NCBI RefSeq assembly: GCF_054482595.1
Contig: NZ_CM137008.1
Length of the DNA: 64,000 nucleotides
Reading direction: 5' to 3' (one strand)
In this document: piece by piece, positions 3,487-49,945 of the stretch
Layout of the letters: each line of letters starts with the position of its first letter
Numbering within the stretch: the stretch's first letter is position 1
The notes under the pieces: generated by a model
What the model was told of the DNA's origin: nothing
Database searches by the model: none
What the model saw: only the letters and a program-made list of their open reading frames with translations
Program-made: the position numbers and the translations under genes

Positions 3487-3911
3487 GTGAAGCGTTATCG
3501 CTTTTCTCGTTGTTTGCCAGTAGTTTTCTCAGCGCTACACTATTACCCGGCAACTCCGAAGTCGTGCTGGTGGCAATGTTGCTTTCCGGGATCAGTCATC
3601 CCTGGGTTTTAGTTTTAACAGCAACAATGGGTAATAGCCTTGGAGGGTTAACTAACGTTATCCTTGGGCGTTTCTTTCCATTGCGTAAAACATCGCGCTG
3701 GCAAGAGAAAGCTACCGGCTGGCTGAAACGCTATGGTGCAGTCACGCTATTATTAAGCTGGATGCCCGTGGTTGGCGATTTACTGTGTCTGTTAGCGGGA
3801 TGGATGCGCATCTCCTGGGGGCCAGTAATCTTTTTTTTGTGCCTTGGTAAAGCGTTACGCTATGTTGCAGTTGCAGCAGCGACCGTTCAGGGCATGATGT
3901 GGTGGCACTAA
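3483..3911 (+). CDS. yqaA: DedA-family inner membrane protein YqaA
   Basis: 142-aa hydrophobic ORF overlapping yqaB stop by 4 nt. Confidence 0.88.
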   Translation: MSEALSLFSLFASSFLSATLLPGNSEVVLVAMLLSGISHPWVLVLTATMGNSLGGLTNVILGRFFPLRKTSRWQEKATGWLKRYGAVTLLLSWMPVVGDLLCLLAGWMRISWGPVIFFLCLGKALRYVAVAAATVQGMMWWH

Positions 3912-3956
3912 TTGTAGGCCTGCACATATGGTCACCATTACAGTTATGCTAATTAA

Positions 3957-5540
<1,584 letters not shown>

Positions 5541-5544
5541 CAGA

Positions 5545-5621
5545 AAAGAAAAAGGCCACTCGTGAGTGGCCAAAATTTCATCTCTGAATTCAGGGATGAT
5601 GATAACAAATGCGCGTCTTTC
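5545..5621 (-). ncRNA. micA: MicA (SraD) small regulatory RNA
   Basis: reverse complement reads GAAAGACGCGCATTTGTTATCATCATCCCTGAATTCAGAGATGAAATTTTGGCCACTCACGAGTGGCCTTTTTCTT, in the gshA-luxS intergenic region. Confidence 0.9.
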
Positions 5622-5689
5622 ATATACTCAGACTCGCCTGGGAAGAAAGAGTTCAGAAAATTTTTAAAAAAATTACCGGAGGTGGCTAA

Positions 5690-6205
5690 ATGCCGTTGTT
5701 AGATAGCTTCACAGTCGATCATACCCGGATGGAAGCGCCTGCAGTTCGGGTGGCGAAAACAATGAACACCCCGCATGGCGACGCAATCACCGTGTTCGAT
5801 CTGCGCTTCTGCGTGCCGAACAAAGAAGTGATGCCAGAAAGAGGGATCCATACCCTGGAGCACCTGTTTGCTGGTTTTATGCGTAACCATCTTAACGGTA
5901 ATGGTGTAGAGATTATCGATATCTCGCCAATGGGCTGCCGCACCGGTTTTTATATGAGTCTGATTGGTACGCCAGATGAGCAGCGTGTTGCTGATGCCTG
6001 GAAAGCGGCAATGGAAGACGTGCTGAAAGTGCAGGATCAGAATCAGATTCCGGAGCTGAACGTCTACCAGTGTGGCACTTACCAGATGCACTCGTTGCAG
6101 GAAGCGCAGGATATTGCGCGTAGCATTCTGGAACGTGACGTGCGCATCAACAGCAACGAAGAACTGGCGCTGCCGAAAGAGAAGTTGCAGGAACTGCACA
6201 TTTAG
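5690..6205 (+). CDS. luxS: S-ribosylhomocysteine lyase LuxS
   Basis: 171-aa [28 protein letters not shown]... Confidence 0.96.
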
Positions 6206-6232
6206 TCAGTAAACTATCTTCACAATTAATTG

Positions 6233-6258
6233 AAAAAAGCCAGTTCAAATGAACTGGC
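6233..6258 (-). terminator. intrinsic terminator downstream of emrB
   Basis: hairpin GCCAGTTCAAATGAACTGGC followed by a T-run on the minus strand. Confidence 0.6.
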
Positions 6259-6268
6259 TTAGTTGTAC

Positions 6269-7807
6269 TTAGTGCGCACCGCCTCCGCCGCCACCTGCGC
6301 CAAAGGGCGGTTTAGCAAACCACACCAGCCCCAGCAAGACGAGGAATATCCCGGCTGACATCCAGAAGATCTCATTTGCGGAAATAATCAGCCCCTGATT
6401 GGTGATCTGCTGGGCAATCCAGCCTGATGCCTGCTGTTGCGTCATCCCAAGTCCTTCCAGTTGACTGTACATCGCCTGGGCATTCGGGTTGAACGGGTTT
6501 ACCGACTCGGTTAACTGCGCATGGTGCATCGACTCGCGGTTGGTCCACATGGTTGTGGTTATCGACGTGCCGATAGACCCCGCCAGCGTACGCGTAAAGT
6601 TGGAGAGGCTCGATGCCGCCGCCAGTCGTTCCGGTGGCAAACCAGACAGCGTAATGGTGGTCAGCGGCATAAAGAAGCAGGCCACCGCAAACCCCTGGAT
6701 AAACTGCGGCCAGGCCGACGCGCCAAAATCCATACCTGGTTCAAAGGTATAGGCACGCCAGTAGAAGCAGACGGCATACATAATAAAGCTGAAGGTTACC
6801 AGTCGGCGCATATCCAGTTTATGCGCGAAGCGGCCGATAATCGGCGACAGTATCACTGGAATAATCCCTACCGGCGCAGAGGCCAAACCTGCCCAGGTCG
6901 CCGTGTAACCGTAGACCTCCTGCAACAACTGCGGCAGCAGAACAATCGCGCCGAAGTAGAGCATATACGCGAGGCTGATACACAAACAGCCGATGGTGAA
7001 GTTGCGCGACTTAAACAACGACAGATCGACTATCGGGTTATCGTCGGTCAGCTCCCAGACAATCAGGAAGCAGATAGCCACCACCGCCACCACGGTAAGG
7101 ATGATAATTTCCTGTGATGAAAACCAGTCCAGCTCTTTACCGCGGTCGAGCATAATCTGCAGGCTGCCTATACCAATAACCAGCAGTGCCAGCCCCACGG
7201 CATCAATCCGCCGCCGTTCGGTGCGGGTTTCGCGTCCGCGCAGAGTTTGCAGTGTCATCAACACCACCGCCACGCCAATCGGCACGTTGATGAAGAATAT
7301 CCAGCCCCAGTGGTAATTATCGCTGATATACCCGCCGAGGATTGGGCCGCAAATTGGCGCGACAATCACCGTCATCGACCACAACGCCAGCGCGATTGAG
7401 CGTTTGGCTGGCGGGTAATTATTCAGCAATAGACTTTGCGAAAGCGGGATCAACGGCCCGGCGACAATCCCCTGAATCACGCGGAAGAAGATCAGCATAT
7501 TCAGGCTGCTGGAGACACCACACGCCCACGACGCAATAGCAAAGGCGATGGTTGACCAGAGGAACAGTTTCACTTCCCCGACGCGCTTTGCCAGCCAGCC
7601 GGTAAGCGGGATCGAGATGGCATTCGCCACCCCGAAAGAAGTGATTACCCACGTTCCCTGGCTGAGCGATGAGCCCAGATTCCCGGCGATAGTGGGGATC
7701 GCCACGTTAGCAATGGTGGAGTCCAGCACCTGCATGAATGTCGCTAGTGACAGCGCAATCGTCATAATGACCAGTTGCGCGCCTTCCAGCGGTTTTTGCT
7801 GTTGCAT
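6269..7807 (-). CDS. emrB: multidrug efflux MFS permease EmrB
   Basis: 512-aa 14-TMS-like ORF starting MQQQKPLEGAQLVIMTIALS. Confidence 0.95.
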   Translation of the reverse strand: MQQQKPLEGAQLVIMTIALSLATFMQVLDSTIANVAIPTIAGNLGSSLSQGTWVITSFGVANAISIPLTGWLAKRVGEVKLFLWSTIAFAIASWACGVSSSLNMLIFFRVIQGIVAGPLIPLSQSLLLNNYPPAKRSIALALWSMTVIVAPICGPILGGYISDNYHWGWIFFINVPIGVAVVLMTLQTLRGRETRTERRRIDAVGLALLVIGIGSLQIMLDRGKELDWFSSQEIIILTVVAVVAICFLIVWELTDDNPIVDLSLFKSRNFTIGCLCISLAYMLYFGAIVLLPQLLQEVYGYTATWAGLASAPVGIIPVILSPIIGRFAHKLDMRRLVTFSFIMYAVCFYWRAYTFEPGMDFGASAWPQFIQGFAVACFFMPLTTITLSGLPPERLAAASSLSNFTRTLAGSIGTSITTTMWTNRESMHHAQLTESVNPFNPNAQAMYSQLEGLGMTQQQASGWIAQQITNQGLIISANEIFWMSAGIFLVLLGLVWFAKPPFGAGGGGGGAH

Positions 7808-45480: not shown

Positions 45481-45690
45481 TGCGCGCGGAGTGGGTGTTT
45501 TATTTTTTGTATGTCACATAAACTTAAGGTATGCAGTACGTAGCTAGTTTCACTAATACTGGGACGAAAAGAATGGTGCGTTTGTAAAAATGTATTTTAA
45601 TTTTTGGATTGTGATACAGAGTAAATTTCATTTAATTTTGTATTTTAATTGCGGTAAGCTATAACAAACTTGAAAAGGAATTATAATCAC

Positions 45691-47352
45691 ATGAGGTATG
45701 TTGAAAATATGAAAATTCTAGTAACTGCACCTTCAAGAAAAAATCACCCAAAAAATAATGTATTGTATGATTTTATATTGCAACAAGATGATTGGAATGA
45801 TTTTAGTTTTATCACTAAGTATCATTTATACATTACAACGAAACTTACTGGTCTTGATGAAATAGAGTATGCTGGGGTTGTTAAAATTATAAAAAAAGAT
45901 CAGTCTGAAGCTGATTACTACATGGTTGAAGAAGGCGAGTTTTCATATTTGAGTGACGAGTTTTGTTCTGTGGGACAATCTCTTGATTATTATGGGAGGC
46001 TCTCTGAATTGGGGAGTGAAATTTGTGAGGGGATATTGACATCATTACGCGACATTAATATGTTTGATTATGTTTCTGAGGGTTTCAAAAATGAAAGAGC
46101 TTGGGAACGTTCTATCATGAGAGACTTAAATAATGATGATGATATTTTTATTCTTCCAAAGTTTATAATAAAAAATCAGTTCTCGGCTATACCTAGTATA
46201 GACATGAAGTTTTCATTTATGTATTCAGGAATGATTAATACTCTTTCGTTTGATTTCGATTCAATACAATATGGATATTTTGAAAGTGAAAAACTACCAT
46301 GTAGAATGTCCGTAATTGTAGGCCGGAACGGTTGTGGGAAGAGTACAACATTGGCAAGACTTTCTAGGGTTGCTTATTCTTCAACTCAGGACAGAAAAAA
46401 AGAACAGATAGCCAAAATTGGTGAAATTCTTCCAGAGGGATTAGGTTTTCCGAAAATAATCAACCTTTCATACAGTGCTTTTGATAGTTTTCAAATACCC
46501 GGGTGTACTTTTAAAGAAAAGAAACAGCTAAGGCAAGACATACTTGATGGGAAAGGTAGGTATATATATTGCGGAGTCAGGGATGTTGGTGCTGAATTGG
46601 ATTATGTATTGGCTAATGTAGATGAAAACAATATGGATATAGAGTTTATTACATTAGATAGGCAAGAGAGAACCATATTAAAACCTCTTGAAGTACTTAG
46701 TGAAGAGTTTTATGGTGTCTTGATAAAAATACATAAAGATAGTGATAAGTGGAATTTGTTTAATAAAGTGATGATGAAGTTGAGAGAAGAGGTTTCATTA
46801 TCTGAAATTATTGATGAAATCTTTAAAGATGATTTTATTCTTAAATCTAAAGAATATTTTCATAGGTTGAGTACAGGGCATAAATTTGTTTTGCATTCGA
46901 TGGCGCATATTTTGTTGTATATTGAAAAAAGATGCCTTGTTTTATTTGATGAGCCTGAAACTCATTTGCACCCGCCATTGCTTGCGGTTTTAATGAGCGC
47001 TCTGAGAATTGTTTTGAACGAAGTCGATGCTTTTGCTATTGTTGCTACTCATTCACCTGTGGTAGTACAAGAAACATTAAGTAAAAATGTTAATGTTATA
47101 ACTAGAAATGGGGAGTTTACTGATTTTCAACGACCTGAAATTGAAACTTTTGGTGAGAATATTGGAGCAATAACATCATCAGTATTTTCATTAACGACTC
47201 AAATAACTGATTATCATGATGAATTAGACAAGCTAATAATAGAATATAAAAATAATAATAATCCATTAGATGACATTGAAAAATGTTTTGATACAGGTCT
47301 TAGTACACAAGCAAGGTCTTATGTAATATCTAAATTAGCGGTAAAAGGATAA
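45691..47352 (+). CDS. ABC-type (AAA15/AAA21, OLD-family-like) ATPase with about 200-aa N-terminal domain of unknown function
   Basis: Walker A GRNGCGKST, signature-like LSTGHK, Walker B LVLFDEPETHLHP, H-loop ATHSP; SD AAGGA 11 nt upstream of ATG. Confidence 0.8.
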   Translation: MRYVENMKILVTAPSRKNHPKNNVLYDFILQQDDWNDFSFITKYHLYITTKLTGLDEIEYAGVVKIIKKDQSEADYYMVEEGEFSYLSDEFCSVGQSLDYYGRLSELGSEICEGILTSLRDINMFDYVSEGFKNERAWERSIMRDLNNDDDIFILPKFIIKNQFSAIPSIDMKFSFMYSGMINTLSFDFDSIQYGYFESEKLPCRMSVIVGRNGCGKSTTLARLSRVAYSSTQDRKKEQIAKIGEILPEGLGFPKIINLSYSAFDSFQIPGCTFKEKKQLRQDILDGKGRYIYCGVRDVGAELDYVLANVDENNMDIEFITLDRQERTILKPLEVLSEEFYGVLIKIHKDSDKWNLFNKVMMKLREEVSLSEIIDEIFKDDFILKSKEYFHRLSTGHKFVLHSMAHILLYIEKRCLVLFDEPETHLHPPLLAVLMSALRIVLNEVDAFAIVATHSPVVVQETLSKNVNVITRNGEFTDFQRPEIETFGENIGAITSSVFSLTTQITDYHDELDKLIIEYKNNNNPLDDIEKCFDTGLSTQARSYVISKLAVKG

Positions 47353-47357
47353 TACAT

Positions 47358-48203
47358 ATGTGGACACTACCTTTACCAGATGATGCGGATAGAATGAGCG
47401 AGTTATTAACCGCTTTAACGTATAAAAATGGAAATCCTAAGTATGCTTTAACACAAGATGAAAAGGATAAAATTGAAACTATTTATACTTTATATCACGA
47501 TCGTAAAGCAACTCCCTGTGCTGAATTTTTAGCAGAGGAAATAAGTGATGAAACCCAAAATGCTATAAAAACAGCTTATTCAGAAGTGCAAATAAATGGA
47601 CGGCTTTCAACCCTTCGCTCAAGGATTTTATTAAGTTCTAAAAAATGCCCATTATGTGGGATCGAATCATCAACCGACCTAGATCATTATCTTCCCGAAT
47701 CAATATATAAATGTCTCGCAGTATATTCAAGAAACCTGATACCGACCTGTCATAAGTGCAATAATAAAAAAAGAGCTGGTGTAGCAGAAAATGGAGTTGG
47801 ATTTATTCATGTGTATTATTTTGATGAGCCCGATGGTGTATTTTTCGTTGCCAATACTGAAATGATAGATGGTGCTTTAGTAATTGATTTTAATATCAAT
47901 ATGATCGAGGGTATGACTCGAGAGGTATATGATTCATTATGCTTTCAAAATAGAGTTGTTAACCTAAATGAAAGGTTAAAGATGGAAGCGAATGATTTTT
48001 TAGGGGGGCTCTATACTTCACTTGAAGAAACATATAATTCTGCAGGCCAAGAAGGATTAAGATTATTTCTAAAAAGAACTAGGGATGACTATACCAGACG
48101 TTATGGGCTTAATCATTGGAGAAGAGCATTGATAGATAGTCTATCCGATAATGTGGAGTTCCTTGACGCTGGTTTTATTACTGCCTTAGGAACTCCAGAG
48201 TGA
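47358..48203 (+). CDS. HNH endonuclease-domain protein (281 aa)
   Basis: CPLCG...DLDHYLPESIY...NLIPTCHKCNNKK HNH/zinc-finger motif; start 5 nt after the ATPase stop. Confidence 0.8.
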   Translation: MWTLPLPDDADRMSELLTALTYKNGNPKYALTQDEKDKIETIYTLYHDRKATPCAEFLAEEISDETQNAIKTAYSEVQINGRLSTLRSRILLSSKKCPLCGIESSTDLDHYLPESIYKCLAVYSRNLIPTCHKCNNKKRAGVAENGVGFIHVYYFDEPDGVFFVANTEMIDGALVIDFNINMIEGMTREVYDSLCFQNRVVNLNERLKMEANDFLGGLYTSLEETYNSAGQEGLRLFLKRTRDDYTRRYGLNHWRRALIDSLSDNVEFLDAGFITALGTPE

Positions 48204-48205
48204 GT

Positions 48206-49399
48206 TTACTGGTGGGGATGAATATGTCGTCCCCACCAATTCATCAATTCAATTCTTGCGTGTAAATATGTTGAGCGATTGTAGGCTTTTCGTACTTCAT
48301 TTCTATCTGAATGAGCAAGAGCAGCCTCAATTACATCAGCATTAAAACCGGCTTCATTCATTGCCGTACTTGCAATCGAACGTAAACCATGTGCAACCAA
48401 TTTCCCACCATAACCTATTCGCTTAAGTGCAGCATTGGCAGTTTGGCTATTCATAGGTTGTTTTGGATTATTTCTGCTGGGAAAAACATGTTCTCGATGT
48501 GCACTAATAGGTTTCATCACATCCAGAATTTCTAATGCTTGTGGTGATAAAGGAACAATGTGTTCACGCTTAGCCTTCATTCGTTCGGCGGGAATCGTCC
48601 AGAGTTTGGCATTGAGATCGATCTCTACCCACCGAGCACCAGAAGCCTCAGAAGGGCGCACTAGGGTCAGAAGCTGCCATTCAATAAGACAGCGAGTCGG
48701 AACAGACAGATTCGACATGACCAGGGAACGCATAAGCTTAGGTAATTCTTCTGGCCGTAGCGTGGGCATATTTTGCTTTTTGGGTTTCTCAAAAGCCATT
48801 CCTACACCCGAAGCCGGGTTGGCATCTATCAGACCGGTATTAACCGCATAAATCATTATTTCGTTAATACGCTGAACTAGGCGACGAACCGTCTCTAATG
48901 CGCCACGTGCTTTGATTGGCTCCAATGCTTCAACAATCGTTCTGGCCTTTATATCCTGAACGGGCATCGCACCGATTGCCGGGAACACGTCTTTATCCAA
49001 AGAACGCCAAATATCCTTTGCATAATCCTCTGTGACACTTCTGCTTTTAATCTGGAACCAGTTAGCGGCCACAGTTGAGAAAATGCTGTCTAACTCAATC
49101 TGGCGTTGTGCTGACGCTTGCTCCTGTTGCTGTTGTGGATCCATGCCTTGCGCGAGCGTGGTTAAGTGCTGGTCGCGTATCTGACGAGCTGCTGCGAGTG
49201 TAAGGGCAGGGTATGAGCCGAGACTCAAATTTGTGCGGCTGCTGCTTCCCGGTCGTTGATAACGGAAGCGTCAGAGTTTTTTACCGGAGGTTTTGACGAG
49301 TAAGAACAGGCCATCACCATCATGCAGGGTGAAGTCTTTTTCGCGGGGTTTCGCTTTGAGGATTTCGTTGTTAGTGAGGGGGCGTGTAATGCGCGCCAT
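48206..49399 (-). pseudogene. intA: P4-type tyrosine integrase with in-frame TGA at codon 43
   Basis: N-terminus MARITRPLTNNEILKAKPREKDFTLHDGDGLFLLVKTSGKKL then TGA then RFRYQRPGSSSRTNLSLGSYPALT... in the same frame; stop sits where related integrases have Trp (TGG). Confidence 0.75.
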
Positions 49400-49449
49400 G
49401 TCTGGATCCCTTCCATAATTGGTACACGTTTAATGGACCACAGTATAGC

Positions 49450-49582: not shown

Positions 49583-49945
49583 TGGTGGAGCTGGCGGGAG
49601 TTGAACCCGCGTCCGAAATTCCTACGTCCTCGGTACTACATGCTTAGTCAGTCTTTACATTCGCTTGCCAGCTGCGGACGGACACGCCACTAACAAACTA
49701 GCCTGATTAAGTTTTAACGCTTCAACCCCAGGCAGGGCCTCCACGCGATCTCTTTTGGGTTTGACCTCTCTTGATCCCCGTCCTAAGAGCGGAGGCTAGG
49801 GAGAGAGGGCTCTAAGCAGGTTATTAAGCTGCTAAAGCGTAGTTTTCGTCGTTTGCGACTATTTTTTGCGGCTTTTTACGAGGCCAACCGCCCCTCGGCA
49901 TGCACCTTGGGTTTCGCAAATCCCGTCGAATCCAGAATCAGCCCC
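49583..49945 (-). ncRNA. ssrA: tmRNA (SsrA), 363 nt
   Basis: reverse complement begins GGGGCTGATTCTGGATTCGACGGG and ends ...GCGGGTTCAACTCCCGCCAGCTCCACCA. Confidence 0.97.

Follow-up and report, generated by a model that had tools for sequence, protein, structure and literature searches.

The stretch of DNA analyzed here (64,000 nt of contig NZ_CM137008.1, RefSeq assembly GCF_054482595.1; referred to below as the window) contains a two-gene locus that encodes an ATP-binding cassette (ABC) ATPase and an HNH protein, and the ATPase carries an additional domain ahead of its nucleotide-binding fold. This N-terminal domain (N-domain) is genuine, spans about 165 amino acids (aa), and is inherited vertically together with the ATPase. 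Taken as a whole, the locus is likely to be a Septu-like module of the PADLOC candidate class PDC-M01, in which an ATPase of the phage lambda Ea59 type is paired with an HNH protein of the lambda Ea31 type, and which is carried as cargo by a P4-like satellite. Residues are numbered from the ATG at position 45709 unless RefSeq numbering is named, and the finding is independent of the choice of start codon. The coordinates of all features are collected in Table 1.

Extent, structure, and conservation of the N-terminal domain

Homologs of the N-terminal region were sought with phmmer among 1.84 billion cluster representatives, using residues 1 to 200 (the approximately 165-aa domain plus the lead-in to the ABC fold) as the query. 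The search returned 734 homologs at an E value of ≤1e-3 and 85 at ≤1e-10. In the full-length homologs among the matches listed, the homologous region was N-terminal, the Walker A motif followed at about residue 185 to 230, and Walker B lay another 150 to 215 residues downstream. The N-domain was never detached from the ATPase, either in 150 representatives among the matches listed or at the 79 genome loci described below. Pairwise identity within the N-domain (0.29) was intermediate between that of the ATPase core (0.39) and that of a helical insertion in the ATPase (0.21, the least conserved region of the protein), and N-domain divergence tracked that of the core (r = 0.63). Six N-domain residues were invariant in the alignment (W29, D31, S87, Y95, S135, and R138), and the motifs DxWND, IGxVKI, CSxGQSxDYY, LRD, and SLLR recurred throughout the family. 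The domain is acidic, with a median isoelectric point of 5.3.

The whole protein was modeled with AlphaFold2 (AF2) from a 66-sequence alignment at a predicted local distance difference test (pLDDT) score of 94.2 and a predicted template modeling (pTM) score of 0.91; the first 205 residues modeled alone reached a pLDDT of 86.8. In the model, the N-domain consists of six beta-strands (residues 3-6, 22-26, 37-42, 53-62, 76-78, and 85-89) followed by helices at residues 92-99, 103-112, 130-136, and 145-154. Profiles of ABC proteins from the Protein Data Bank (PDB) align from about profile position 155 to 185 onward. A first reading of this DNA from the sequence alone (the sequence-only reading) had described an N-terminal domain of about 200 aa. 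The extra domain is real, but its size is closer to 165 aa, and the remainder consists of strands that lead into the ABC fold.

The same reading had found no recognizable motif in the N-terminal region, and this holds in Pfam, NCBIfam, and PDB searches as well as at the level of the fold. Pfam left the N-domain unmatched in the query and in all 52 aligned members, while NCBIfam matches were confined to the C-terminal ATPase half and gave none for the N-domain. A search of PDB sequences with the N-domain profile matched nothing, and structure searches, Foldseek included, yielded no fold analog outside the domain's own family. Foldseek did return 267 significant matches to family structures in AFDB50; the 50 listed were ATPases of about 480 to 650 aa or their fragments, one of them named "Ea59 protein," and came from Proteobacteria, Firmicutes, Actinobacteria, and Bacteroidota. 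Word-indexed homolog searches with the N-domain gave only short fragments (2 with the single sequence and 19 with a profile) and no new architectures. Likewise, no relatives were found in a scan of viral contigs with the full ATPase protein. A degenerate PD-(D/E)xK nuclease, considered on the basis of the "D-V-K" in IGDVKIL, was rejected, as the acidic position varies freely (V here) and there is no nuclease fold.

In the PDB, the family ATPase profile also matched chain A of entry 9N69 (552 aa, "AAA family ATPase"), at 3e-15. The nearly equal offsets of this match (profile position 263, chain position 249) hint at an N-terminal region of comparable length. The N-domain profile did not match this entry.

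Start codon and position of the Walker A motif

The ATPase gene lies in an intact open reading frame (ORF; 45670..47352, plus strand) with two candidate start codons. RefSeq places the start at ATG 45691 (WP_021557103.1; 553 aa), six codons upstream of ATG 45709, from which the protein would be 547 aa long. Neither ATG is preceded by a well-spaced Shine-Dalgarno site. Since the homologs P0003, L007, and L008 begin at the equivalent of ATG 45709 (MKIL...), this codon is somewhat more likely to be the start; position 1 of the PADLOC profile also aligns to the residue encoded there. With either start, the Walker A motif lies far from the N terminus, near residue 210, as had been read from the sequence (K211 from ATG 45709, K217 from ATG 45691).

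The upstream region also proved not to be a start-codon artifact. That the true start is an internal ATG near Walker A, leaving the upstream 200 codons untranslated in the ATPase, is hardly credible: in-frame ATGs are present at 46204, 46219, 46231, and 46306 and Shine-Dalgarno spacing is not ideal at either upstream candidate, but the region shows protein-level conservation across phyla, invariant residues included, receives a confident fold from AF2, is covered by an alignment to lambda Ea59 that begins at residue 24, and includes strands of the ABC fold (residues 167 to 204) that an internal start would remove. Because of these strands, even a start at ATG 46306, the only in-frame ATG near Walker A, would cut into the ATPase fold.

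Relationship to lambda Ea59 and Ea31

Profile searches placed both proteins in families that are already modeled. The ATPase matched the PADLOC model PDC-M01A at 1.3e-99 (residues 7 to 546), the PADLOC PtuA model PDLC00282 at 1.2e-73 (residues 19 to 544), and PHROG 8066 (function unknown) at 8.8e-78 (residues 20 to 543); the N-domain alone still matched PHROG 8066 at 4e-18. The HNH partner matched PDC-M01B (2.6e-37) and PHROG 10378 (HNH endonuclease; 1e-20). A tblastn search of phage genomes identified lambda ea59 (4e-41, query residues 24 to 510), with ea31 directly downstream. In BLASTP comparisons, the ATPase aligned with lambda Ea59 over the same residues, N-domain included (6e-52), and the HNH protein aligned with Ea31 (5e-12). 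Lambda Ea59 and Ea31 in turn matched the same PADLOC models (3.9e-201, 5.4e-184, and 5.8e-113), and PHROGs 8066 and 10378 match both pairs.

We compared the lambda pair (locus L006; NC_001416, 24509-26973) with window positions 45709-48203. In both, an N-domain and an ABC ATPase with a helical insertion are followed by an adjacent CxxC/HNH protein of about 285 aa in the same gene order, the sequences match over their full length, and the pair sits beside the integration module of a temperate element. These pairs differ in sequence (identity of 28% between the ATPases and 24% between the HNH proteins), in carrier (a P4-like satellite remnant here rather than a lambdoid phage), and in the presence of ea47, which lies further downstream in lambda, is absent here, and is unmatched in PADLOC.

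By homology, the N-domain is thus the signature of the lambda Ea59-like ATPases, a family that defense annotation tools already model, and the pair is assigned, as a branch of the Ea59/Ea31 type, to the Septu-like class of ATPase-HNH systems (PADLOC candidate PDC-M01). As the mark of a new system, then, the N-domain does not stand. Indirect support for a defense role comes from Zhou et al. 1994 (Mol Microbiol 12:789; listed among the references of PMC2653506), whose title reports that a phage-resistance gene of Streptomyces lividans resembles lambda ea59. In the literature searched, no paper named both Ea59 and Septu. In the Bacillus cereus group, PADLOC calls the same proteins both PDC-M01 and Septu, and DefenseFinder gives other system names to some of the PDC-M01 calls (PMC11811056).

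Comparison with Septu, retron, PARIS, and Gabija systems

Among solved structures, the ATPase part of the protein is nearest to PtuA proteins, since a PDB profile search gave E values of 8e-20 for retron type I-A PtuA and 1e-10 for Septu PtuA (8EE4), followed by OLD (6e-10) and AriA (9e-9). Canonical Septu (8EE4; EcB88), too, is a two-gene module that pairs an ABC ATPase (AAA_15/AAA_21) with an HNH nuclease, and one PADLOC PtuA model spans the present protein end to end. In contrast, canonical PtuA (465 aa in the 8EE4 chain) has its P-loop near the N terminus and no N-domain. The Walker A lysine of Septu EcB88 is K43 (PMC13096335), and in the studied Septu PtuA architecture the P-loop falls within about 45 residues of the N terminus, while here the lysine is at residue 211 (217 in RefSeq numbering). 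The approximately 165-aa domain has no counterpart in the PtuA chains of the PDB. Immunity by Septu EcB88 requires Walker A, Walker B, and HNH residues and involves cleavage of tRNA-Tyr (PMC13096335).

The PtuA/PtuB proteins of type I-A retrons (Ec78/Eco7 and Ec83) include the closest solved ATPases, and retron PtuA shares the presence of an N-terminal addition ahead of the ABC fold, which in the retron is regulatory and partner binding (PMC12819146). In Ec78, a complex of reverse transcriptase, noncoding RNA (ncRNA), and multicopy single-stranded DNA holds PtuAB through a 65-aa N-terminal extension of PtuA; the extension contacts the reverse transcriptase and the ncRNA and is needed for immunity, while stand-alone PtuA lacks it (PMC12819146). 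However, the retron extension is helical and short (about 65 aa), its sequence is unrelated to that of the N-domain, and Walker A of retron PtuA lies at about residue 90. Retron type I-A modules also have an adjacent reverse transcriptase and ncRNA, whereas the pair here is flanked by psu and int pseudogenes. Neither a reverse transcriptase gene nor an ncRNA gene was found beside it in the ORFs and annotation, a search that did not include scanning with Rfam for retron ncRNAs. The NCBIfam PtuA model NF041760 scored 40.3 bits, compared with its cutoff of 500.

PARIS (AriA/AriB) and Gabija (GajA/OLD) share the ABC ATPase superfamily with the present protein and give weak C-terminal matches; PADLOC AriA models matched only residues 378 to 471, approximately, at about 1e-13. 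These systems differ in using a Toprim nuclease (DUF4435, or a fused Toprim domain) rather than HNH and in having no N-domain. Neither pairing with nor fusion to a DUF4435 Toprim protein was found here, the partner being the HNH protein. The sequence-only reading had proposed that the N-terminal region sets this system apart from canonical Septu, PARIS, and Gabija. This is borne out only relative to the Septu and retron PtuA proteins studied so far, and the alternative that the segment matches a standard PtuA region is partly supported, in that one PADLOC PtuA model (PDLC00282) covers residues 19 to 544.

ATPase core, HNH partner, and distribution of the module

The predicted catalytic motifs are complete in both proteins. 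In the ATPase, G205, N207, G208, G210, and K211 as well as G390, D414, E415, E417, and H448 were invariant in 66 homologs, and Pfam AAA_21 and AAA_15 matched residues 388 to 459. The HNH gene starts 5 nt past the ATPase gene on the same strand, and its product has a zinc finger HNH core (nt 47646-47762: C97, C100, D109-H110, N126, C131, and C134-N135). At the identical locus of Escherichia coli XH990, RefSeq names the two products "AAA family ATPase" and "HNH endonuclease signature motif containing protein."

A genome scan (one genome per species, with two N-domain motifs derived from 10 closer sequences) identified 79 loci in Proteobacteria, Bacteroidota, Actinobacteria (including two Streptomyces), Firmicutes, Acidobacteria, Leptospira, and Campylobacterota. 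At 77 of the 79, the ORF encoded 470 to 644 aa with Walker A at residue 192 to 350; in all of these but L031, which has an extra N-terminal extension, the motif was at residue 192 to 257. Where a downstream ORF was present (76 loci), it was homologous to the HNH protein of the window in 74 cases. These HNH ORFs (265 to 308 aa) abut or overlap the ATPase gene and keep the HNH core residues listed above. No other gene family recurred at more than 10 of the 79 loci, so there is no third conserved gene; flanking genes vary, and integrases were near 5 loci. Given the strict pairing of ATPase and HNH genes, the lack of another recurrent gene family, and the variable flanks, the two genes form a self-contained, mobile module.

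Variation within the family was also observed at the N terminus. In a subgroup (P0078, P0143, P0110, and L031), the Ea59-type domain is preceded by an extra extension of about 160 to 250 aa, which Pfam identified as AbiJ_NTD3 (E values down to 1.4e-53). One metagenomic contig encodes a 1,049-aa fusion (P0131; L005, 515-3664) of the N-domain and ABC ATPase to a McrB-like AAA+ region (AAA_5, McrB_lid), with McrC (3682-5025) downstream in place of the HNH gene. The N terminus of the family is thus a site of modular change.

Genomic context

The pair occupies the psu-int hotspot, as cargo of a P4-like satellite that is integrated at ssrA and has decayed. The order of genes in the window is AbaSI-family enzyme, P4 primase fragment, psu pseudogene, ATPase, HNH protein, integrase pseudogene, ssrA, and smpB. 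The P4 psu-int hotspot has been described previously, with Septu among its listed cargo (PMC9122126). A 66%-identical homolog (P0003) occupies the same slot in an intact-looking element (Ogr/Delta-Psu-ATPase-HNH-int) in which the Ogr/Delta and Psu genes are intact. The GC content of the pair (31 to 35%) compares with 48.5% for the window. The identical locus is annotated in E. coli XH990 (RefSeq), and the exact allele was present in about 15 of 5,426 complete E. coli genomes.

The carrier satellite has decayed (43990-45289 and 48206-49416): its primase is truncated, and psu (two ORF fragments) and the integrase gene (ORF fragments at 48206-49228 and 49225-49416) contain internal stops, while both defense genes are intact. 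A second defense gene of the island, encoding an AbaSI-family enzyme, lies about 2 kb upstream of the ATPase gene. In XH990 (L001, 10340-13678), the integrase pseudogene is followed by genes for an RloB-family protein, another AAA ATPase, and a second integrase, an arrangement that suggests tandem islands at the site. The window differs in that ssrA comes directly after the integrase remnant.

Table 1. Features of the ATPase-HNH locus and its surroundings. Positions refer to the window, except in the last row, where they are those of the L031 locus.
Feature	Position	Strand	Basis or remark
Ea59-type, PtuA-like ABC ATPase gene	45709..47352	+	PADLOC, PHROG, BLASTP, AF2
Family-specific N-terminal domain, residues 1-165	45709..46203	+	AF2, alignment; matches Ea59 PHROG
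N-domain motif DDWND	45787-45801	+	
N-domain motif CSVGQSLDYY	45964-45993	+	
N-domain motif SLRD	46042-46053	+	
N-domain motif RSIMRD	46108-46125	+	
Beta-strand lead-in of ABC ATPase fold, residues 167-204	46207..46320	+	AF2 strands 167-171, 179-182, 200-204
Walker A, GRNGCGKST	46321..46347	+	Residues 205-213, K211 (ATG 45709); residues 211-219, K217 (ATG 45691, RefSeq)
Variable helical insertion, Q-loop region to ABC signature, residues 261-385	46489..46863	+	AF2 helices 268-386
ABC signature, LSTGHK	46867-46884	+	Intact
Walker B, LVLFDEPE	46936-46959	+	Intact
H-loop, ATHSP	47044-47058	+	Intact
Ea31-type HNH nuclease partner, 281 aa	47358..48203	+	PADLOC PDC-M01B, PHROG 10378, BLASTP to Ea31
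YpjA/EhaD-type autotransporter adhesin, 1567 aa	37679-42382	+	Left of island
AbaSI-family modification-dependent restriction endonuclease, 293 aa, intact	42693-43574	-	PADLOC mREase_II 4e-122
psu (polarity suppression) pseudogene, left hotspot border	44723..45289	+	Internal stop (RefSeq, identical locus); two ORF fragments
P4-type integrase pseudogene, right hotspot border	48206..49399	-	Internal stop (RefSeq, identical locus)
ssrA (tmRNA), integration site of the element	49583..49945	-	ARAGORN, tag peptide ANDENYALAA
L031, Chitinophaga barathri	4467-6401		Extension-bearing family member

Possible mechanism and role of the N-terminal domain

By analogy with Septu, retron PtuAB, and the lambda enzyme, the ATPase would oligomerize and hold the HNH nuclease, and nucleotide binding or hydrolysis by the ATPase would gate it. 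An infection cue may then release nucleic acid cleavage, which would stop phage growth. In this scheme, the N-domain would most likely be an integral module that packs against the ATPase and serves in regulation or cue reading, probably directed at a conserved ligand or a surface within the complex rather than at a fast-evolving phage protein; this is the weakest step of the proposal. A conserved ligand or interface module fits better because the domain is kept with the ATPase, diverges in step with the core at an intermediate rate, and is acidic. The acidic charge makes a generic DNA binder or clamp less likely, and the conservation of the domain makes a sensor of fast-evolving phage proteins less likely.

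Several points weigh against the assignment of the locus as a Septu-like defense module. Experimental work is known to us neither on this protein nor on mutants of the N-domain. An enzyme encoded by lambda was reportedly described by Benchimol et al. in 1982 (as cited in PMC5241400) as a DNA endonuclease dependent on single-stranded DNA (ssDNA). This enzyme is putatively assigned to Ea59/Ea31, in part on the title of the 1994 paper by Zhou et al. Its DNA substrate contrasts with that of the studied Septu and retron PtuAB systems, which cut tRNA-Tyr (PMC13096335). The HNH protein matched no NCBIfam family at an E value of ≤0.01 and is therefore not a PtuB of the TIGR02646 type. As this partner is only remotely PtuB-like (PADLOC PtuB1 at 1.8e-8 over about 80 residues; HNH core matched by PDB PtuB chains at E values of 7e-4 to 5e-3), the mechanism may differ from that of the studied Septu systems. 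Furthermore, with psu, int, and primase all reduced to pseudogenes, expression of the module is not guaranteed, and a promoter scan upstream of the ATPase gene detected no consensus sigma-70 site.

Three other roles of the N-domain were considered. The first, possible but rather doubtful, is that of a nucleic acid recognition module, which would license the HNH nuclease upon binding an activating cofactor or target such as ssDNA, tRNA, or modified DNA. The ssDNA dependence cited for the 1982 lambda endonuclease, if that enzyme is indeed Ea59/Ea31, would agree with such a role, and the invariant residues (S, Y, R, and D) are of a kind that could well contact phosphates or bases. In McrBC systems, a DNA-reading domain occupies the N-terminal position of McrB. 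In the P0131 fusion, it is the N-domain and ABC ATPase that hold the N-terminal position of the McrB-like GTPase, with McrC next to it. The acidic character of the domain, as noted above, argues against generic DNA binding.

An unlikely alternative is that the N-domain directly senses a phage protein, as PARIS AriA does with Ocr, or docks some other partner. The N-terminal extension of retron Ec78 PtuA is such a partner-binding element (PMC12819146), the acidic surface is compatible with protein binding, and the addition of AbiJ_NTD3 before the N-domain in some members marks the N terminus as a site of modular accretion. However, the rate at which the domain evolves does not exceed that of the rest of the protein, and it keeps invariant polar residues from Proteobacteria to Actinobacteria, which is not the pattern of an arms race, and the 79 loci offer no third conserved gene that could serve as the partner.

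It is similarly improbable that the N-domain is purely architectural, an oligomerization or HNH-docking platform replacing the contacts of canonical PtuA hexamers. The high full-length pTM would imply that the domain is packed on the ATPase in a fixed way, and its constant attachment to the ATPase is consistent with a structural part. In contrast, a mirror-tree comparison revealed no specific covariation of the N-domain with the HNH protein (Spearman coefficient of 0.705, the lowest of five ATPase regions), and the invariant residues are polar rather than hydrophobic, suggesting a ligand site. It is also possible, though less likely than not, that the N-domain is a previously undescribed fold and acts as the switch through which Ea59-type Septu-like systems read their cue, licensing the HNH nuclease when it binds, for instance, ssDNA or another conserved signal of infection.

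Significance

For annotation purposes, the locus should be labeled not as a new system but as a module of the Ea59/Ea31 type (PDC-M01, Septu-like) within a P4 hotspot. The N-domain marks a large, phylum-spanning branch of ATPase-HNH defense pairs. The domain itself has neither a Pfam or NCBIfam model nor a structural analog, and the Septu and retron PtuAB proteins whose structures have been studied so far all lack it. If the domain is indeed a cue-reading switch, the ATP- and ssDNA-dependent endonuclease reportedly purified in 1982 from lambda-infected cells would be the first biochemically studied member of the branch, and lambda itself would carry a Septu-like inter-phage weapon beside its attachment site. 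Overall, the role of the N-domain would show how the Ea59-type branch is switched on and would also give a function to two classical "nonessential" lambda genes, ea59 and ea31.

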